A stretch of 49,491 bases of DNA from an uncultured Gammaproteobacteria bacterium (lineage in GTDB: Bacteria > Patescibacteriota > Patescibacteriia > Magasanikbacterales > GWA2-37-8), in NCBI GenBank assembly GCA_964640515.1, contig CAZXFG010000001.1:1-49491 (forward strand), read 5' to 3'. Numbering within the stretch: the first letter of the stretch is position 1; every line of letters begins with the position of its first letter. Shown here in pieces: positions 1,650 through 43,949 of the stretch. A model generated the notes under the pieces. It ran no database searches and had not been told where the DNA came from. It saw nothing but the letters and a program-made list of their open reading frames with translations. The translations under genes and the position numbers were made by a program.

Positions 1650-4184
1650 ATGAATATAATAGATCGTTTTTCCACGCATCTTAAAGAGGTTTTGACTCGT
1701 AGCATCCATTTGGCCACCGAGTTAAAAAACCCGGAAGTGTTTCCCCTGCACTTTCTTTACACTATGCACACCCAAAAAGGCGCGGTAGCGGCCGAGATTT
1801 TGCGTCGTTTTAATATTGACCAAAAAATACTGGAACAAATTCTGCTCAATCTGCCGGTCGTGCCGAAGAAAAAAACCAATGAAGAAAATAATGTCGCCCA
1901 AGTCCAGCTCACCCCACTTTCAAATGCCTGCAAAACCATTTTGGAACGCGCCATGTTGATTGCCCAGGAAAACCAGCATAATTATCTCGGCACGGAACAC
2001 CTTTTGTCCGCCTTAATCCGTTCGGGAGATAATTATTGCGATGAAACTTTTCAGATTAACAATGTTAAAACGGCTGATTTAGAAAAACAGATGCAAACTG
2101 TTTTGCGTAATTCCACCCAATTTCCGCAAATCACCGAAGTGGCGGAATTAGCGGATAAAATCCAAGAAAATTTGATCACGCCTCCCGGACCTCTTGCGGG
2201 CGGAGAAAATATGATTATGCCGCCGGAAACAATAAACAAAAAAAAACACCGTAAAGAAACCGCTCTGGATTTTTTTGCCACCAACCTCACCCACCCGGAA
2301 ACACAAAAAAATATTGATCCGGTCATCGGCCGAGAGATGGAAATAGAACGGCTTATTCAGATACTCTGCCGCCGCGCCAAAAACAATCCGATATTACTGG
2401 GCGATCCCGGGGTGGGCAAAACCGCCATCGTGGAAGGATTGGCCAAAAAAATTATGGCTGGCGACGCGCCGGATCTTTTATTGAATAAAAAAATATACGC
2501 TCTGGACATGGGCCTGTTGGTCGCCGGCACCATCTATCGCGGTGAATTTGAAGCCCGTTTGAAACAAGTGATTGAAGAAGTGGCCCAAGATTCTTCTGTG
2601 ATTTTATTTATTGACGAAATCCACAATATCGTGGGCGCGGGAAGCAACCAAGGCACCATGGACGCGGCTAATATTTTGAAACCGGCTTTAGCCCGCGGAC
2701 AAATTCGCTGTATCGGCGCCACCACCCCGGCCGAATACAAAAAATATATTGAGAACGACGCGGCCTTGGAACGCCGTTTTATGCCCATTCAAGTAAAACA
2801 ACCGAGCGTGGAAGACGCGGTGAAAATCTTAAGCGGCATCAAAAAAAATTATGAGCTGTATCATCAGGTAAAAATATTGCCTGAAGCGGTAGAGGCCACG
2901 GTCCGCCTTTCCGACCGCTATATTTCCGGAAAATTCTTGCCGGACAAGGCTATTGATCTTTTGGATGAAACGGCCGCCGCCAAAAGATTGCTGGCCAAAT
3001 CATCATCTCTGGTGAGCCGTCTTCATCGGCTGGAACAAAAATTACAGACCGCCGTTTTAAATAAGGAAACCGCCGCGGCTGAAGATAAATTGGAGGAAGC
3101 TATAAAATTTAAAGAACAGGAAGCCAAATTAAAGGAAGAAATAAAAAAAATGCAAAAAAAATCCGGAGAAAAAAAGATTAAAATTTTGGGAACCATTACG
3201 GCGCGGGATGTGGCTGAACAAGTTGCTAAAATAACCGGCACTCCTCCGGCTGATTTGCTCTTAGCGGATAAAAGCCGTCTGTTGGGTCTGGAAAATGAAT
3301 TAAAAAAATATATTGTGGGTCAAGACCAGGTGATTGCCAAAATATCTCAATTGATTCGCCAGGCGGAGCTAAACCTCTCTCATCCCGAACGACCGCTCGC
3401 CTCTTTTCTCTTTGTGGGCGAAAGCGGAGTGGGCAAAACCGAACTGGGAAAAACGCTGGCTAAAGTGCTTTTTGCCAATCCGGACGCGCTCATCAAACTG
3501 GATATGAGCGAATTTCACGAGAGCTATAGCAGTTCCAAACTCCTGGGCTCTCCGGCCGGCTATGTGGGATATAAAGAAAGCAACCAATTTACGGATAAAA
3601 TAAAAATGAATCCCTATTGTGTCATCTTGTTTGATGAAATAGACAAGGCGCACAAGGATGTCACCAAATTATTGTTGCAAATGCTGGAGAACGGCGAGAT
3701 TACCGATTCCACGGGCAAAAAAATTTCCTTAAAACATGCTATAATAATCATGACTACCTCTCTCGGGGCCAGTGAAGCCAAGAAAGGTAATTTTGGGTTT
3801 GGCGCCCAAGACGGCGCGGTGGAAGAAGGTAAAAAACGGCTGATAGAAAAACTAAAAGAATATTTTTCCCCGGAATTAATCAACCGCTTGGATCAAATTT
3901 GCATTTTCCGTCCGCTCTCCAAAACAGATTTGGTTCAAATAGCTGAATTGGAAATCAATCATCTAAACGACCGCTTAAAAAATTATCATACCCGTTTGAA
4001 CGCGGAACAAGAAATATTGGATTGGATGGTGCGGCAATTGCCGGAAAAAAACACCGGAGCGCGCGACATTCGCCGCACGGTGCGAAAAGCGGTGGAAAGT
4101 CTGGTCTCCCAAACGATTTTAAACGGCAAAACAAAAAATAAATATCGCTTGCAACTAAAAGATGAGAGACTACAGCTTGTGTAA
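1650..4184 (+). CDS. clpC: ClpC-type AAA+ unfoldase (Clp protease ATP-binding subunit)
   Basis: 844 aa. Clp_N-like N-terminus, two Walker A motifs (GDPGVGKTA, GESGVGKTE), short coiled M-domain and a GNFGFG loop resembling the ClpP-docking [LIV]GF tripeptide. Confidence 0.9.
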   Translation: MNIIDRFSTHLKEVLTRSIHLATELKNPEVFPLHFLYTMHTQKGAVAAEILRRFNIDQKILEQILLNLPVVPKKKTNEENNVAQVQLTPLSNACKTILERAMLIAQENQHNYLGTEHLLSALIRSGDNYCDETFQINNVKTADLEKQMQTVLRNSTQFPQITEVAELADKIQENLITPPGPLAGGENMIMPPETINKKKHRKETALDFFATNLTHPETQKNIDPVIGREMEIERLIQILCRRAKNNPILLGDPGVGKTAIVEGLAKKIMAGDAPDLLLNKKIYALDMGLLVAGTIYRGEFEARLKQVIEEVAQDSSVILFIDEIHNIVGAGSNQGTMDAANILKPALARGQIRCIGATTPAEYKKYIENDAALERRFMPIQVKQPSVEDAVKILSGIKKNYELYHQVKILPEAVEATVRLSDRYISGKFLPDKAIDLLDETAAAKRLLAKSSSLVSRLHRLEQKLQTAVLNKETAAAEDKLEEAIKFKEQEAKLKEEIKKMQKKSGEKKIKILGTITARDVAEQVAKITGTPPADLLLADKSRLLGLENELKKYIVGQDQVIAKISQLIRQAELNLSHPERPLASFLFVGESGVGKTELGKTLAKVLFANPDALIKLDMSEFHESYSSSKLLGSPAGYVGYKESNQFTDKIKMNPYCVILFDEIDKAHKDVTKLLLQMLENGEITDSTGKKISLKHAIIIMTTSLGASEAKKGNFGFGAQDGAVEEGKKRLIEKLKEYFSPELINRLDQICIFRPLSKTDLVQIAELEINHLNDRLKNYHTRLNAEQEILDWMVRQLPEKNTGARDIRRTVRKAVESLVSQTILNGKTKNKYRLQLKDERLQLV

Positions 4185-26660: not shown

Positions 26661-26786
26661 ATACAAAAACGGGTATTACCCTTTCGCAAACAGTGTCGAT
26701 TTGCCCGCGGGCAAATCGCACTTCAGATCTCACCCGCCGCGAGGCGGGTTCCGATATGTTGCTCAAAGGTAATCCCGTTTTTGTAT
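26661..26786 (+). repeat. Structured ~126-nt element, copy 1 (Y-shaped: outer stem plus two hairpins with conserved junctions)
   Basis: It fills the whole convergent intergenic gap. A 19-bp outer stem (one bulged nt) pairs ATACAAAAACGGGTATTACC with GGTAATCCCGTTTTTGTAT. Junction blocks of 18, 14 and 17 nt are identical to the copy at 31751..31870, while both inner stems differ but stay paired. Confidence 0.65.
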
Positions 26787-26792
26787 ATATTA

Positions 26793-31193: not shown

Positions 31194-31296
31194 AGCTGAT
31201 ATATTTTTATTCTCCAAAATGTTCTTTAAAATGATTGACAAAAGAAAGAAAAAATAGACATATTATATAAAAATATGGCTTAGATAAGGCAAAAAT

Positions 31297-31325
31297 ATTA
31301 TACCACCACCCTCCACTCTTGACAA
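31297..31325 (-). promoter_or_regulatory. Candidate promoter for the adk-map operon
   Basis: On the - strand: TTGTCA (31320..31325), 17-nt spacer, TATAAT (31297..31302). Its -35 box overlaps the -35 box of the divergent + strand promoter. Confidence 0.4.
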
Positions 31326-31347
31326 CTCTCTCTCTCTTTGCTATAAT
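31319..31347 (+). promoter_or_regulatory. Perfect-consensus sigma70-type promoter for an orphan + strand transcript
   Basis: TTGACA (31319..31324), exactly 17 nt spacer, TATAAT (31342..31347). Confidence 0.55.
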
Positions 31348-31402
31348 TAAATGTTCAAATATCTGCTATCTGCCAGAACAACCAGAACAAGAAGGAGGGA
31401 TA

Positions 31403-31537
31403 ATGTACTTTCTCAAATACCTGCCGGCCTCGGTGCCGCTCCTCATGGCCTTGGCCCTCTTCGGGGCCGATGCCGAAATGCTCTTCGTTGGAGGATGCAC
31501 GACCTGCATCCTCCTGGAATTGCAGCGGAGGGGGTGA
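31403..31537 (+). CDS. Candidate 44-aa hydrophobic mini-protein (alternatively part of a structured ncRNA)
   Basis: AAGGAGG lies 4 nt upstream of the ATG. Peptide is MYFLKYLPASVPLLMALALFGADAEMLFVGGCTTCILLELQRRG. By hand count, 36 of 44 codons end in G/C, unlike neighbouring genes. Confidence 0.35.
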   Translation: MYFLKYLPASVPLLMALALFGADAEMLFVGGCTTCILLELQRRG

Positions 31538-31617
31538 AAAGAGGACTCCTGCTCCCCAGCTCGAGTCCCCAAGAAGATAAATTTTGTCTTTTTAGGGACG
31601 CTGGAGAACAGACCCTA

Positions 31618-31643
31618 GATCCCCGTTTTCACGGGGATGACAG
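31618..31643 (+). repeat. Hairpin repeat with ATGACAG tail
   Basis: GATCCCCG-ttttca-CGGGGAT followed by GACAG. Confidence 0.5.
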
Positions 31644-31646
31644 ATG

Positions 31647-31683
31647 AAAAACCCCGTCCACTCGGACGGGGTTTTTGTTTTTT
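31647..31683. terminator. Strong bidirectional intrinsic terminator
   Basis: AAAAA-ACCCCGTCC-actc-GGACGGGGT-TTTTTGTTTTTT. It has a U tract in both orientations, ending the orphan + transcript and probably secY read-through on the - strand. Confidence 0.7.
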
Positions 31684-31685
31684 AA

Positions 31686-31739
31686 GGGATTCCTCGACGG
31701 AGTTTATCCCGAGCGTAGTCGAGGGACTCGGGATGACAG
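31686..31739 (+). repeat. Compound hairpin repeat with ATGACAG tail
   Basis: Interleaved arms CCTCGAC/GTCGAGG and ATCCCGAG/CTCGGGAT, ending in GATGACAG. Confidence 0.5.
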
Positions 31740-31750
31740 ATAGGATATAA

Positions 31751-31870
31751 AAAAGAGGAGATATTCTTGAGCAACATATCGGAGCCCCGACCTGGCGTCG
31801 GGGCGAGATCTGAAGTGCGGCTCGCCCGCAGGCGAGACGACACTGTTTGCGAAAGAGTATCTCCTCTTTT
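31751..31870 (-). repeat. Structured ~120-nt element, copy 2 (inverted relative to copy 1)
   Basis: Its reverse complement aligns with 26681..26767. Blocks CTTTCGCAAACAGTGTCG, CGCACTTCAGATCT and TCCGATATGTTGCTCAA are identical. Hairpins CTCGCC-tgcg-GGCGAG and GCCCCGAC-gccag-GTCGGGGC replace those of copy 1. It has its own outer stem AAAAGAGGAGATATTC/GAGTATCTCCTCTTTT. Confidence 0.65.
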
Positions 31871-31889
31871 AATTTTTTATAGGACAAAA

Positions 31890-35270: not shown

Positions 35271-35660
35271 TTAATAGATCTCGCAAAGCAACTCTCCGCC
35301 TACTTTGGCTCGCCGCGTCTCGCCATCGGTTAATATCCCCTTGGGCGTGGACAAAATGGCCAAACCAAAACCATTCAAAATTTTACCGATTGCGTCTTTT
35401 TTTACATATTGGCGCGCTCCGGGACGGCTAATTCTCTTCAAATGCCTGATGGCCGGTAAACCATTGTCGTATTTTAAATTCAGAATGATAACCGGATGCT
35501 TATCTTGAGCTGATTCGGCTTTGGCCAAATACCCCTCGCGCACCAAAATATTGGCAATGGTCATTTTAATTTTGGAATAAGGCAACACCACCTCTTTTTT
35601 TCGCACTTGAGAGGCGTTTCTAATCCTTGTTAACATGTCGGCGATTGGATCAGTCATCAT
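35271..35660 (-). CDS. rpsH: 30S ribosomal protein S8
   Basis: 129 aa starting MMTDPIADMLTRIRNA. Confidence 0.95.
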   Translation of the reverse strand: MMTDPIADMLTRIRNASQVRKKEVVLPYSKIKMTIANILVREGYLAKAESAQDKHPVIILNLKYDNGLPAIRHLKRISRPGARQYVKKDAIGKILNGFGLAILSTPKGILTDGETRRAKVGGELLCEIY

Positions 35661-37167: not shown

Positions 37168-37425
37168 TTATTTTAGAATCTCGGCCAGATACCATCTTTT
37201 GGTTTTGGACAACGGCCGGCTCTCTATAAATTTTACTTTATCCCCCACTTTCGCTTCGCCCTTTTCATCGTGCACATGATATTTCTTGCTCACTCGAAAA
37301 TATTTATCATATTTCGCGTGTTGCTTCATTGTGTTGACTTCAACCACAACCGTTTTCTGCATGGCCGCTTTTACCACTTGACCGATAAAGCTTCTTTTAA
37401 TTTTTTTTGTCGCTGTTTTTTCCAT
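37168..37425 (-). CDS. rpsQ: 30S ribosomal protein S17
   Basis: 85 aa with [16 protein letters not shown]...[15 protein letters not shown]...[10 protein letters not shown]. Confidence 0.95.
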
Positions 37426-37434
37426 AAAAATATT

Positions 37435-37851
37435 TTATTTCATTTTGAGAGAAAATCTGGTTTTAACCCTGATTTTATAGCCGGCTAAATGCATTGCCTC
37501 TTCGGCTGACTCTTTGGTGATGCCGCCCATTTCAAATAAAACCGTACCTGGCTTCACGGGCACGACATAATGGTCCGGAGCCCCTTTCCCTCCGCCCATG
37601 GGCACTTCATTGCCTTTTTTGGTTACCGGTTTGTCAGGGAAAATACGGATCCAAATTTTACCTCCGCGGCGAGTATAGCGGGTCAAAACACGGCGAGCCG
37701 ACTCAATCTCCCGGCTAGTCACCCAACCGGCCTCTTTACTTTTCAAACCAAACTCTCCAAAAGCGACAAAATTGGTCCTGGTGGCCACGCCCATATTTCT
37801 GCGTCGGCCTTTGTGCCATTTACGGTGCGCTACCTTCTTCGGTATTAACAT
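37435..37851 (-). CDS. rplP: 50S ribosomal protein L16
   Basis: 138 aa starting [16 protein letters not shown], with [16 protein letters not shown]. Confidence 0.96.
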
Positions 37852-41318: not shown

Positions 41319-42035
41319 TTATTGAGCTATGGTCGCTCCGGCGCTTTCAGGCGAGGACCCGTCCTCTTGGGGCAATGGGACAACCGAAATATCTGAACCA
41401 TTTTTCTTAACCACTTTTAATTCTCCCGGAGCCATAATTTCCAACAAAGCATTGCGACCGCCCGGCACGGCGCCTTTTAAATAGATCTCATTAGTTTCCG
41501 GATGTACAGAAACCACTTCTAAATTTTTAACGGTAATTTGAGCATTCCCCATCTGGCCGGCCATGCGCATGCCTTTAAATACCCTTTGCACGCCACCGGC
41601 GCCAATTGAACCGGGAGCGCGTAAATTGTCCTTATGGCCATGCGAAGCCGGACCACCGTGAAAATGATGGCGTTTCACCACACCGGCAAAACCCTTGCCT
41701 TTAGAAATCCCGATCACGCTTACCTTTTCACCTGGAACAAAAGTTTCCACTGTTACTAAATCTCCGCGCGAAACGCTGTCGGTTGATTCAATTTCAAATT
41801 CCTTCAGCCAGCGCACGGGTTTCAAATCCTTCAAATGCCCGGCCATAGGTTTACTTAAACGGAATTCTTTTCTTTCTCCAAAACCAAGCTGGACAGCTTT
41901 ATTGTTGTCTTTATCTCCATTTTTTACCTGAACCACTTGGCAAGGTCCCGCCTGTATTCTAGTCACTGGCACCACCTCACCGCTGGGGACGAACACCTGC
42001 GTCATGCCTATCTTTTTCCCTAAAATAAATTTCAT
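41319..42035 (-). CDS. rplC: 50S ribosomal protein L3
   Basis: 238 aa starting MKFILGKKIGMTQVF, with GKGFAGVVKRHHF. Confidence 0.96.
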   Translation of the reverse strand: MKFILGKKIGMTQVFVPSGEVVPVTRIQAGPCQVVQVKNGDKDNNKAVQLGFGERKEFRLSKPMAGHLKDLKPVRWLKEFEIESTDSVSRGDLVTVETFVPGEKVSVIGISKGKGFAGVVKRHHFHGGPASHGHKDNLRAPGSIGAGGVQRVFKGMRMAGQMGNAQITVKNLEVVSVHPETNEIYLKGAVPGGRNALLEIMAPGELKVVKKNGSDISVVPLPQEDGSSPESAGATIAQ

Positions 42036-42083
42036 AAATAATGAATGTTAGCGGACCATTTAGCTTTTCCTTAATGGTCTTAA

Positions 42084-42136
42084 CAAAAAACTAGAAGCAA
42101 CAACATTGAATAAAAATTCAATTCTGTCGCTTCTAG
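42084..42136 (-). terminator. Long intrinsic terminator/attenuator hairpin 50 nt upstream of rplC, in the sense orientation
   Basis: 21-position stem over 42091..42136. On - strand RNA 20 positions pair (two are G-U); on + strand RNA only 18 pair. It is followed on the - strand by UUUUUUG (42085..42090). Confidence 0.55.
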
Positions 42137-42323
42137 CCTTTCGCGTCAGCGAAATCCGCCCACAGCGGATTCAACCCAATCGGAAACTTTGGGTTAAAAT
42201 GGCTATAAAAATATTTTATCAAATAATTTCCCCCGGTTTATTTTTTCCTAATAAATGTTTTCCCTAAGCCCGGTTTGGGCCGGATCTTATTTACTCGGTT
42301 AAATAAACCAAACACTGACCCTA

Positions 42324-42351
42324 ATTCTACTACTTTTTTCTTAATTGTCAA
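42324..42351 (-). promoter_or_regulatory. Candidate internal promoter just after the rpsJ stop
   Basis: On the - strand: TTGACA (42346..42351), 16-nt spacer, TAGAAT (42324..42329). Confidence 0.4.
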
Positions 42352-42356
42352 GCCCC

Positions 42357-42701
42357 CTACATCTTTATTTCCACATCAACTCCGGCCGGCAAGCTTAAGC
42401 TCATCAGCGCGTCAATACACTTCGGAGAGGCGTTGATAATGTCTATTAAGCGTTTATGCACACGCATTTCATATTGCTCCCGAGCATCCTTATGCACGAA
42501 GGTGGAACGATTTACGGTGTATTTCATCTTTTCCGTAGGTAAAGGAACCGGGCCGATTACCTTGGCATCATTTCTTTCTGCCGTCTCAATAATCGTCTTG
42601 GTGGCCTGATCTATAATCTTACTGTCATAAGCGCGGATCTTAATTCTAATCCGCGTGCCGTTCTCCTCCTTCTTTACAGTATTGGTGGTTGCAGAACTCA
42701 T
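42357..42701 (-). CDS. rpsJ: 30S ribosomal protein S10
   Basis: The track start at 42719 is a TTG that abuts a hairpin; the ATG at 42701 gives MSSATTNTVKK. Core RIRIKIRAYD...AKVIGPVPLPT...RVHKRLIDI. Confidence 0.93.
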   Translation of the reverse strand: MSSATTNTVKKEENGTRIRIKIRAYDSKIIDQATKTIIETAERNDAKVIGPVPLPTEKMKYTVNRSTFVHKDAREQYEMRVHKRLIDIINASPKCIDALMSLSLPAGVDVEIKM

Positions 42702-42721
42702 AAGGTAATAAAAGAACAAAT

Positions 42722-42750
42722 CCCCGCCCCGGCTAAAAGCCGGGACGGGG
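42722..42750 (-). terminator. GC-rich hairpin in the tuf-rpsJ spacer (partial terminator or processing/stability element)
   Basis: The - strand RNA CCCCGUCCCGGC-uuuua-GCCGGGGCGGGG forms 12 bp. The single non-Watson-Crick pair is G-U on the - strand but C-A on the + strand. It is followed by AUUUGUUCUUUUAUUA. Confidence 0.5.
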
Positions 42751-42758
42751 AAATATTT

Positions 42759-43949
42759 TTACTTAATAATTTTAGTTACAACTCCAGCGCCTACCGTCCG
42801 GCCACCCTCGCGAATGGCGAATTTCATTTTTTCTTCCAAAGCTACTGGAATAATTAATTTAACTTTCAAAACGACATTGTCGCCCGGCATTACCATTTCA
42901 ACGCCAGCCGGCAATTCCACTTCACCGGTCACATCGGTAGTGCGGATATAAAATTGGGGTTTATATCCCTTGAAAAATGGCTTATGTCGGCCGCCTTCTT
43001 CTTTGGTCAAGATCAACACTTGGGCTTCAAACTCGGTATGAGGAGTAATGGAACCGATTTTGGCCAAAACCATGCCGCGTTCAATATCCTCTTTCTTGGT
43101 GCCTCTCAAAAGCAAACCAGCATTGTCGCCGGCCACGCCTTCTTTCAAACTCTTGTTAAACATTTCTATGCCAGTGACTACGGTTTTAGAAGTTTCTTCT
43201 TTTAAACCGACAATCTCGGCATCATCATTAATATGAATAGTGCCGCGCTCGATACGACCGGTGACTACAGTACCGCGGCCTTCAATGGAAAAAACATCTT
43301 CCACGGGCATCAAAAACGGCTTATCAATCTCGCGTTGCGGTTCTGGAATATATGAATCTAAAGTATCAAGCAAATCCAAAATCGGTTTAGTGGCGGTCGC
43401 GTCAGTCGGGTTTTGCAAGGCCTGTAAAGCTGAACCGCGGATGATTGGAGTAGTGTCGCCGGGGAATTCATATTTCTTCAATAAATCACGCACTTCGGCC
43501 TCCACCAAATCAATTAATTCCGGATCGGAAACTTGATCCACTTTATTTAAGAAAACTACGATATATGGTACGCCTACTTGGCGAGCCAAAAGGATGTGCT
43601 CGCGGGTTTGCGGCATAGGGCCGTCAGCGGCTGAAACTACGAGAATAGCGCCATCCATCTGGGCGGCGCCGGTAATCATATTTTTTACATAATCGGCATG
43701 ACCCGGGCAGTCCACATGGGCATAATGTCTCTTCTCTGATTCATATTCCACATGGGCGGTAGAAATGGTAATACCGCGGGCCTTTGATTCCGGAGCTTTG
43801 TCCAAATCATCAACACCTTTCTTTTGGGCTACTCCACCGCGAGCATTCAATATCTGCAAGATAGCGGCAGTTAAAGTGGTTTTACCGTGGTCAACATGGC
43901 CAATGGTACCTACATTTACGTGCGGCTTTGTTCTTAAAAACTCAGCCAT
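42759..43949 (-). CDS. tuf: Elongation factor Tu
   Basis: 396 aa with [18 protein letters not shown] and NKVD. Confidence 0.98.

Follow-up and report, generated by a model that had tools for sequence, protein, structure and literature searches.

The locus raises the question of why a structured spacer, which begins with a promoter and ends in a strong terminator, is located between rpsJ and rplC at the head of a large ribosomal protein gene cluster. The window, i.e., the whole stretch of 49,491 nucleotides that was analyzed, carries this cluster on its minus strand in the order tuf, a hairpin with a T run, rpsJ, the spacer, rplC, rplD, rplW, and rplB. Further downstream rpsS, rplV, rpsC, rplP, rpsQ, rplN, rplX, rplE, a short ORF, rpsH, and rplF follow. 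The identities of the genes from rpsS to rplF were obtained by a Pfam scan. The short ORF lies outside that scan and by its position between rplE and rpsH sits at the place of rpsN. Based on the ORF coordinates, consecutive ORFs from rplC to rpsH are separated by gaps of about 30 nt at most. The genes relevant here are:

42759 to 43949, minus strand: tuf
About 42357 to 42698, minus strand: rpsJ, encoding S10, the neighbor upstream of the leader
42036 to 42356: the rpsJ-rplC spacer, 321 nt
41319 to 42035, minus strand: rplC, encoding L3, the first gene past the leader
35271 to 35660, minus strand: rpsH, encoding S8 (Pfam Ribosomal_S8, E=9e-44), the gene of the candidate effector within the same tightly packed cluster

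The initial annotation, which was made from the sequence of the window, had described 320 nt that split rpsJ from rplC, two genes said to be normally adjacent. The gap is real, and the figure is one nucleotide short. The adjacency is valid for E. coli, where 32 nt separate both genes, but not for the Patescibacteria sampled. Here, a scan with the L3 protein, using one genome per GTDB species, yielded 80 Patescibacteria loci, of which 79 include rpsJ on the fetched stretch, and in all 79 the gap amounts to 116–1091 nt.

Several features of the surrounding genes were observed in addition. The gap between tuf and rpsJ contains a 14-bp G+C-rich hairpin followed by a T run (42721-42751, minus strand), which ends roughly 22 nt before the ATG of rpsJ. 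Thus, rpsJ is flanked on both sides by terminator-like structures, and it is without an obvious promoter of its own. Only 9 nt separate rplP (L16) from rpsQ (S17) (window 37425-37435), and rpmC (L29) is absent from its canonical place. Directly downstream of secY an ORF-free gap of about 650 nt is present (window 31242-31889), containing only short overlapping ORFs with Arg/Gly/Pro-rich translations. This gap also harbors the second of two copies (window 26665-26790, plus strand, and 31745-31870, minus strand) of a noncoding element, which is about 125 nt long and 84% identical between the copies. Some of the differences look compensatory in a hairpin, as seen in GAUUUGCCCGCGGGCAAAUC compared to GUCUCGCCUGCGGGCGAGCC. 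No Rfam family matched this element, for which only leader-like matches below the threshold were obtained; either a short repeat or a small structured RNA may be present here.

Within the spacer, the following elements were located:

42346 to 42351, minus strand: -35 box TTGACA, starting 5 nt after rpsJ
42324 to 42329, minus strand: -10 box TAGAAT, 16 nt away from the -35 box
42222 to 42310, minus strand: 5′ domain, in which a purine box comes after a long irregular hairpin made up of P0a, P0b, P1, the internal loop, and P2; matched by the covariance model R1 described below (57.5 bits, E=1.3e-9) and supported by covariation
42284 to 42290, minus strand: core strand a, AUAAGAU, comprising the last two P1 pairs, the loop AAGA, and the first P2 base
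42255 to 42261, minus strand: core strand b, AAAACAU, invariant or nearly so
42267 to 42281, minus strand: variable apex of P2, GGCCC-AAA-CCGGGCU, free to vary in length and sequence in relatives, with covarying P2 pairs
42227 to 42234, minus strand: purine box GGGGGAAA, GGAG-like, directly 3′ of the 5′ hairpin
42196 to 42204, minus strand: 5′ strand of P3, AGCCAUUUU, pairing with GAAAGGCU at 42135-42142
42135 to 42142, minus strand: 3′ strand of P3, GAAAGGCU, overlapping the base of the terminator by 2 nt, with GGCUAGAAG conserved
42140 to 42195, minus strand: variable hairpins enclosed by P3, three candidates
42091 to 42136, minus strand: terminator stem-loop with the arms 42136-42116 and 42111-42091
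42085 to 42090, minus strand: U6 tract, followed by a conserved GUUA
42054 to 42079, minus strand: hairpin located behind the terminator and ahead of the rplC start, seen in the fold; a hairpin is located here in several relatives too

The promoter TTGACA-16-TAGAAT, which the initial annotation had placed 5 nt past the rpsJ stop codon, was found there at 42351-42324. It reaches a score of 11/12, and within 10 kb it ranks among the top two promoter-like sites. Judged from the promoter spacing, we infer that transcription probably starts near 42317, and the structured RNA from the promoter to the terminator would be about 233 nt long. Four hairpins had been listed for this RNA, and all of them are present in the sequence. 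GCCC-aaacc-GGGC (42281-42267) is the apex of the 5′ hairpin, and the hairpins AACCCAA..UUGGGUU (42195-42173) and AAUCCGC..GCGGAUU (42171-42153) follow. However, the fourth one, UUCGC-ugac-GCGAA (42153-42140), is absent from the minimum-energy fold, since it competes with the AGCC/GGCU closing helix of P3, which is formed by AGCC-A-UUUU with GAAA-GGCU.

The RNA ends in a stable G+C-containing hairpin and a U tract, as is characteristic of an intrinsic terminator, with a folding energy of about -24 kcal/mol. The 21 positions of the stem consist of 18 Watson-Crick pairs, two G-U pairs and one A-G mismatch. Here, the stem, the U6 tract and both G-U pairs had been described correctly, whereas the mismatch had been missed and the distance to the rplC ATG is 49 nt instead of 50. 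The fold z-score is similarly low for both strands (-6.7 for the minus and -7.1 for the plus strand) and therefore gives no indication of the strand. What sets the strand are four other features, all in agreement with the sense orientation that had been proposed, namely the promoter, the U tract, the G-U pairs and the matches of the covariance model, which are strand-specific. Behind the terminator, the hairpin found in L001, L007, L008, and L014 reads CUUCCC...GGGAAGCAAUGAC or similar in several of them, and it may represent a second, translational element.

Is this arrangement particular to one contig, or is it conserved? By the similarity of its L3 protein, the organism groups with Candidatus Magasanikbacteria-like Patescibacteria. 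The window and 22 loci of the GTDB set form a Magasanikbacteria-type group of 23 sequences, whose spacers display an identical block order. It starts with the TTGACA promoter, followed by GUAAAUAAGAUC and GAAAACAUUUAC with a hairpin between them, a GGAG-like purine box, an A/U-rich stretch, and AAGCCA. The 3′ part contains one to three unrelated hairpins, which in the relatives likewise make up the domain enclosed by P3, and then AAGGCUAGAAGC, a variable upper stem, GCUUCUAG, five to seven U, and GUUA. An exact TTGACA with a -10 box is present at the equivalent place in 21 of the 23, and the tract of U5–U7 in all of them. The purine box reads GGAG, GAGG, or AGAGG in the relatives as well as in other lineages, AAGCCA is conserved in the Magasanikbacteria-type group, L028, and L049, and in Uhrbacteria-type lineages GGCUAGAAG is replaced by GGCCAGAAG, for which a change in the 3′ arm compensates. 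In the MAFFT alignment of the 5′ domain, AUAAG.U and AAA.CAU are invariant. In L003 and L013 an extra ORF (at approximately 3047-3545 and 3209-3790, respectively) lies between rpsJ and the leader promoter, in spacers of 954 and 792 nt.

From the MAFFT alignment of the 5′ domain, the covariance model R1 was built. In the 674 kb searched, it gave exactly one match per Magasanikbacteria-type locus plus a weaker one in L025. All matches lie between rpsJ and rplC, with nothing elsewhere. A second scan, in which metagenomes were searched with a terminator pattern, yielded 80 loci, 48 of them with rplC directly downstream and two cut by the contig end. The R1 core was found in 47 of the loci at rplC or at a contig end, again in one copy per locus throughout this set of 536 kb. 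Taken together, the same leader is present in 24 loci of the GTDB set and at least 47 metagenome contigs, always directly before rplC and once per locus, and core strand a is invariant in 23 GTDB-set and 47 metagenome sequences. Since the whole cassette recurs in relatives, it is judged to be beyond chance, and the structured sense leader with its own promoter and intrinsic terminator before rplC, as initially described, is a recurrent arrangement.

This distribution also bears on the idea that the spacer is a mobile or repeat element. Long inverted repeats and a T run can mark miniature mobile elements. Nevertheless, no second copy occurs in the window or in any locus, and the remaining 30 metagenome loci returned by the terminator pattern are of unrelated sequence, lack the core, mostly form no hairpin, and look like chance. 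The terminator is therefore no dispersed repeat. Relatives with adjacent genes and a spacer that is a multi-copy repeat, the case which had been named as speaking against a leader, were looked for; instead, the gap is present in 79 of 79 loci with a single copy in each. Attenuation by a leader peptide could be considered as well, because the window contains a TTG-initiated frame that extends from the purine box up to GGCUAG, where it ends at the UAG. In the relatives the frame ending at this UAG is open for 1–72 codons and usually without a start codon, and leader-peptide attenuation was therefore rejected. A mobile element or a peptide-based attenuator can hardly be credited. A search of Rfam 15 with the spacer gave nothing relevant, neither at the gathering threshold nor at E up to 10, and the best sub-threshold matches were terminator-only look-alikes.

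The secondary structure is supported by covariation. RNAalifold, applied to an alignment made with MAFFT only, predicts P1 and the base of P2, and six of these nine pairs are compensatory with almost none broken; for example, UAAAU/AUUUA alternates with CAGAU/AUCUG. In the helices of the 5′ hairpin, 87.6% of the cells are paired in the GTDB set and 91.2% in the independent metagenome set, compared to 35–51% for slid partners. The covariation score is 0.55 and 0.57 in the two sets and 0.04–0.19 for slid partners. Here it has to be considered that fitting to the model, as done for A2 and A3, favors the structure, whereas the MAFFT alignment A1 was not fitted. The terminator stems of 70 distinct homologous terminators covary, too. 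Pairs 7–16, which are those not fixed by the search pattern, are 60–99% paired, with only one of the ten below 77%, and they use G-C, A-U, C-G, and U-A alike. The spacer thus combines a conserved secondary structure supported by covariation with a position directly upstream of a ribosomal protein operon, as is generally the case for ribosomal protein leaders.

How are rplC and the genes behind it transcribed, if a terminator precedes them? The terminator is separated from the ATG of rplC by 3–96 nt in the metagenome loci and by 8 nt in L023, the shortest locus of the GTDB set, and in the window no promoter-like site is present between the two. Therefore, no room is left for an rplC promoter, which means that rplC and the packed downstream genes are transcribed through the strong terminator. 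The read-through would be conditional or partial, in line with the earlier claim that such a terminator must be conditional.

Two further explanations have to be weighed at this point. According to the first, the spacer is an independent gene that is embedded between rpsJ and rplC and encodes a small RNA of about 233 nt with a function in trans; an independent sRNA gene had also been the alternative offered in the initial annotation. In favor of it, a strong promoter and a strong terminator belong to the element both in the window and in 21 of 23 close relatives, and terminated leaders can accumulate. However, rplC would then be left without a promoter of its own, as the above distances illustrate, the position directly before rplC is invariant, and most other lineages keep the hairpin and the terminator without a strict promoter (only 22 of 80 spacers have one). 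This alternative is disfavored and considered very unlikely.

The second explanation is a constitutive punctuation of the operon, in which the terminator ends the tuf-rpsJ transcripts and dampens rplC by a fixed fraction, or a checkpoint for processive antitermination (Nus-type or put/EAR-like), both without feedback by a ribosomal protein. The terminator indeed lies in the path of the tuf-rpsJ transcripts, a cluster of more than 20 genes would gain from terminator-resistant polymerases, and the lack of an antiterminator, as described below, fits as well. However, a plain boundary has its terminator before the promoter, whereas here it follows the promoter by 230 nt, and no boxA-like element was recognized by eye. 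Furthermore, an invariant loop and its flipped variants, to which we turn now, need a specific partner. Neither version is therefore regarded as likely.

The core predates the lineage of the window. The same internal loop is present in Uhrbacteria-, Falkowbacteria-, and Buchananbacteria-like as well as further lineages, in at least 30 further loci, where it is placed between unrelated helices. Around it, P1 varies as GGAG/CUCC, AGAG/CUCU, AAAG/CUUU, and others. Examples are:

GGAG-UAAGUUGCC...GGCAUAAC-CUCC
AUGGAG-AAAGAUCCC...GGGGAAAAC-CUCCAU
AUAAAG-AAAGGUUCC...GGGAAAAAC-CUUUAU

A simple descriptor of the loop matched 45 of the 80 spacers, with about 0.08 matches expected per 300 nt when scaled from random 16S-like sequence. 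In four loci the loop is flipped, namely in L022 (UGAAUGA-AAAC-UAUCCG...CGGAUA-AAGA-UCAUUCG) and in L028, L029, and L035 (P1-UAAC-CC...GG-AAGUG-P1′). Such flipped occurrences would fit a modular protein-binding loop. Near the 3′ end, a terminator-like hairpin with a U run occurs in 70 of the 80 spacers in sense and in 41 in antisense orientation. A strict promoter match was obtained for 22 spacers in sense and for none in antisense orientation. On this sequence evidence, the universal parts are the loop-bearing hairpin and the terminator, and the promoter is not always kept. Therefore, a cis-acting attenuator is favored over a free-standing RNA gene.

These observations also bear on the idea that the spacer is a riboswitch or senses some other factor from outside the ribosome, in which case a small molecule, e.g., a growth-rate signal, or another protein would set the termination. 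A promoter, an aptamer-like domain and an intrinsic terminator represent the layout of a transcriptional riboswitch, and several conserved single-stranded blocks are present (the loop, the purine box, AAGCCA, and GGCUAGAAG). However, the spacer matches no Rfam 15 family, and the core consists of a single small internal loop whose flipped form occurs as well, a property common among protein sites but rare among ligand pockets. Furthermore, the RNA is found only before ribosomal protein genes, and no mutually exclusive antiterminator was found. Sensing of a non-ribosomal factor thus appears improbable.

The explanation that fits best regards the spacer as the 5′ leader of the rplC operon and as a member of a ribosomal protein leader family of the Patescibacteria, which acts as a transcription attenuator. 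We consider this probable, though well short of certain, and the leader would then most likely be a feedback switch for the production of ribosomal proteins. Mechanistically, transcription would start at the promoter just after rpsJ or, in the lineages without this promoter, come in from tuf-rpsJ. The nascent RNA would fold into the long hairpin, which presents the invariant A-rich internal loop with AAGA opposite AAAC and probably a central G-C pair. It would be followed by the purine box, the small multi-hairpin domain closed by AGCC/GGCU and the strong intrinsic terminator. A ribosomal protein encoded downstream and present in excess over rRNA would bind the loop and thereby increase termination at the U tract, so that rplC and the downstream genes are transcribed less. 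If this protein is taken up by ribosome assembly, more polymerases would read through. The binding of a protein, its identity and the direction of its effect are what we infer from the observed anatomy, conservation, covariation and exclusive position before rplC.

The weakest part of this model is the coupling of the loop occupancy to a terminator about 120 nt downstream. No conserved antiterminator helix was found when duplex energies with either terminator arm were calculated, since the best partners lie at inconsistent places, and P3 and the terminator overlap by only 2 nt in the lineage of the window. Therefore, the nearest precedent is the S10 leader of E. coli, where termination is increased by L4 and NusA and no alternative helix is involved. 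In L042, L050, L059, L078, L024, and L027, a CCAGA or CAG(U)UUAA segment upstream of the terminator is also complementary to the 5′ arm of its stem, UCUGGA or GCUGG. Unlike the situation in the lineage of the window, this looks like a terminator/antiterminator pair, and for L042, L050, and L024 an overlapping helix of this type was seen by eye.

The E. coli S10 leader likewise places an intrinsic terminator before the genes rplC-rplD-rplW-rplB and so on, and the presumed logic is shared, i.e., an excess of a ribosomal protein leads to termination with no obvious antiterminator. In contrast, it precedes rpsJ, whereas the Patescibacteria leader follows rpsJ and has its own promoter. In the E. 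coli S10 leader region no significant R1 match was obtained and no similarity was detectable. Rfam 15 gave no match there either, which means that the absence of an Rfam match says nothing on a kinship to the S10 leader. Hence, the proposal of an S10-like attenuator relocated to precede rplC-rplD stands with regard to a conserved leader at this place, but not with regard to similarity to the E. coli leader.

Which protein could be the effector of such a putative attenuator? In E. coli, L4 acts on the transcription of the S10 operon and S8 on the translation of the spc operon. Among the candidates, S8 is tentatively preferred on account of the similarity between the loop and the S8 site in helix 21 of the 16S rRNA, and S8 could be the effector if the leader is an attenuator. 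L4, proposed by analogy to E. coli, would be a less likely choice, and L3, suggested by its adjacency, a rather improbable one. A point for S8 is that rpsH is located in the same tightly packed cluster as the leader. For the comparison, 16S genes were taken from leader-bearing contigs, and the pairing of helix 21 from the Rfam SSU consensus. A 16S gene lies on the contig of the leader in L158 (7107-8600), L154, L107, L135, and L201, and a partial one in L109 and L018; in L158 and L154 it is located on the same strand about 3 kb from the leader. The strands facing each other are:

Helix 21, L158: GA-AAAGUUGG...CCAAAAC-UU
Helix 21, L107: GG-UAAGUUGA...UCAAAAC-UA
Helix 21, L154: UG-UAAGUUGA...UCAAUAC-UG
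Leader, Magasanikbacteria-type: AU-AAGAUCC...GGAAAAC-AU, also as AUAAGAUCC..GGAAAAC
Leader, Uhrbacteria-type: GGAG-UAAGUUGCC...GGCAUAAC-CUCC

Both helix 21, with the S8 operator, and the leader display a helix broken by a small A-rich loop, in which an AAG(N)U and an A(A/U)AC strand are arranged around a G-C pair; in both cases the loop is found in either orientation, and the S8 gene is part of the regulated cluster. If A-A-G-A-U and A-A-A-A-C of the leader are set in register with 595-599 and 639-643, nine of the ten positions are identical, and core strand b shares the pentamer AAAAC with the S8-site strand of helix 21 in the related 16S genes. Features reported to matter for S8 are the pair G597-C643, A640, N641, and the invariant A642 (PMC4176348). 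In the leader, they correspond to a G at 42286, a C at 42257 and the AAA before this C, positions at which 70 sequences show no or almost no variation. Natural S8 sites have a bulged A and an A596-U644 pair that forms the base triple A595-(A596-U644), whereas the leader has an A bulge of 2–3 nt beside the helix. The P1 register, which is fixed by covariation, leaves these two to three A/U unpaired and without an equivalent of U644, and the triple is thus not reproduced. At position 641, helix 21 carries A or U, which is not tracked by the leader, being invariant there.

On sequence alone the look-alike is not significant, as comparable two-strand matches occur about 3–5 times per 1.5 kb of random sequence, and loose descriptors of helix 21 did not discriminate against random sequence. 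The S8 idea rests on the register and the biology, not on statistics. In the spc operator of E. coli, CGAAACUGC is present at +5 to +13 and GCAAGUCCC at +78 to +86 of rplE. The motif of this natural operator has the opposite orientation to helix 21 (PMC4176348), which would parallel the forward and flipped leaders. There, S8 acts on translation at rplE, whereas the leader would act on transcription before rplC.

When the 16S genes of relatives and the 23S rRNA of E. coli were compared, the sole rRNA look-alike found pointed to S8 and not to L4. A search of the E. coli 23S rRNA with R1 returned nothing. Here, H97 (GAGAUAAGUGCUGAAAGCAUCU) was considered and rejected, since its loop (AUAA/GAAG) and its pairing differ. 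H43 (GGCUUAGAAGCAGCCAU) was rejected as well, since it matches in permuted order only and probably by chance. In E. coli 23S (L081), H43 at positions 1060-1085, which is the L11 site, reads GGCUUAGAAGCAGCCAUCAUUUAAAG, and the window contains AGCCAUU and GGCUAGAAGC at 42135-42204, i.e., in permuted order.

A more specific proposal would be that the leader is a relaxed mimic of the S8 site of helix 21, used in either orientation and coupled to the terminator between rpsJ and rplC, by which S8 would throttle the whole cluster from rplC to rpsH and beyond in several Patescibacteria lineages. This is possible, yet somewhat doubtful. If true, a single small-subunit assembly protein would control transcription of genes whose regulation is split in E. 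coli between L4 and S8.

With regard to known systems, the leader is of an already known kind, namely a ribosomal protein leader with a terminator. The L10 and L20 leaders of Firmicutes bind ribosomal proteins and use an intrinsic terminator as expression platform. These are other RNAs in other operons with other proteins, and terminator/antiterminator alternatives are known there, whereas none was found in the leader described here. The closest published item is the L4-Archaeoglobi candidate, an archaeal motif curated in Rfam (Eckert and Weinberg, 2020; PMC7247131). It is likewise a conserved RNA directly upstream of rplC, rplD, rplW, and rplB, and its ligand is assigned by precedent only (PMC7247131). 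In contrast to this motif, the Patescibacteria spacer matches no Rfam family.

No report of a ribosomal leader in Patescibacteria was found in full-text literature searches, and the family appears to be previously undescribed. What appears to be new is the RNA family itself, its position behind rpsJ with its own promoter, the spread over the sampled Patescibacteria lineages and the possible S8 logic.

Patescibacteria have tiny genomes, few regulators, and unusual ribosomes. To our knowledge, almost nothing is known about gene regulation in these organisms of the Candidate Phyla Radiation. The leader would be the first ribosomal protein feedback element described for Patescibacteria, and R1 represents a ready covariance model for the annotation of their genomes. 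The natural series of forward, flipped, and sequence-variant loops could show how much change a mimic of an rRNA site tolerates. The leader is widespread, and its position separates the gene for S10, a protein that also serves as the transcription factor NusE, from the remaining genes of the classical S10 operon. The whole cluster behind the leader may be under one sensor.
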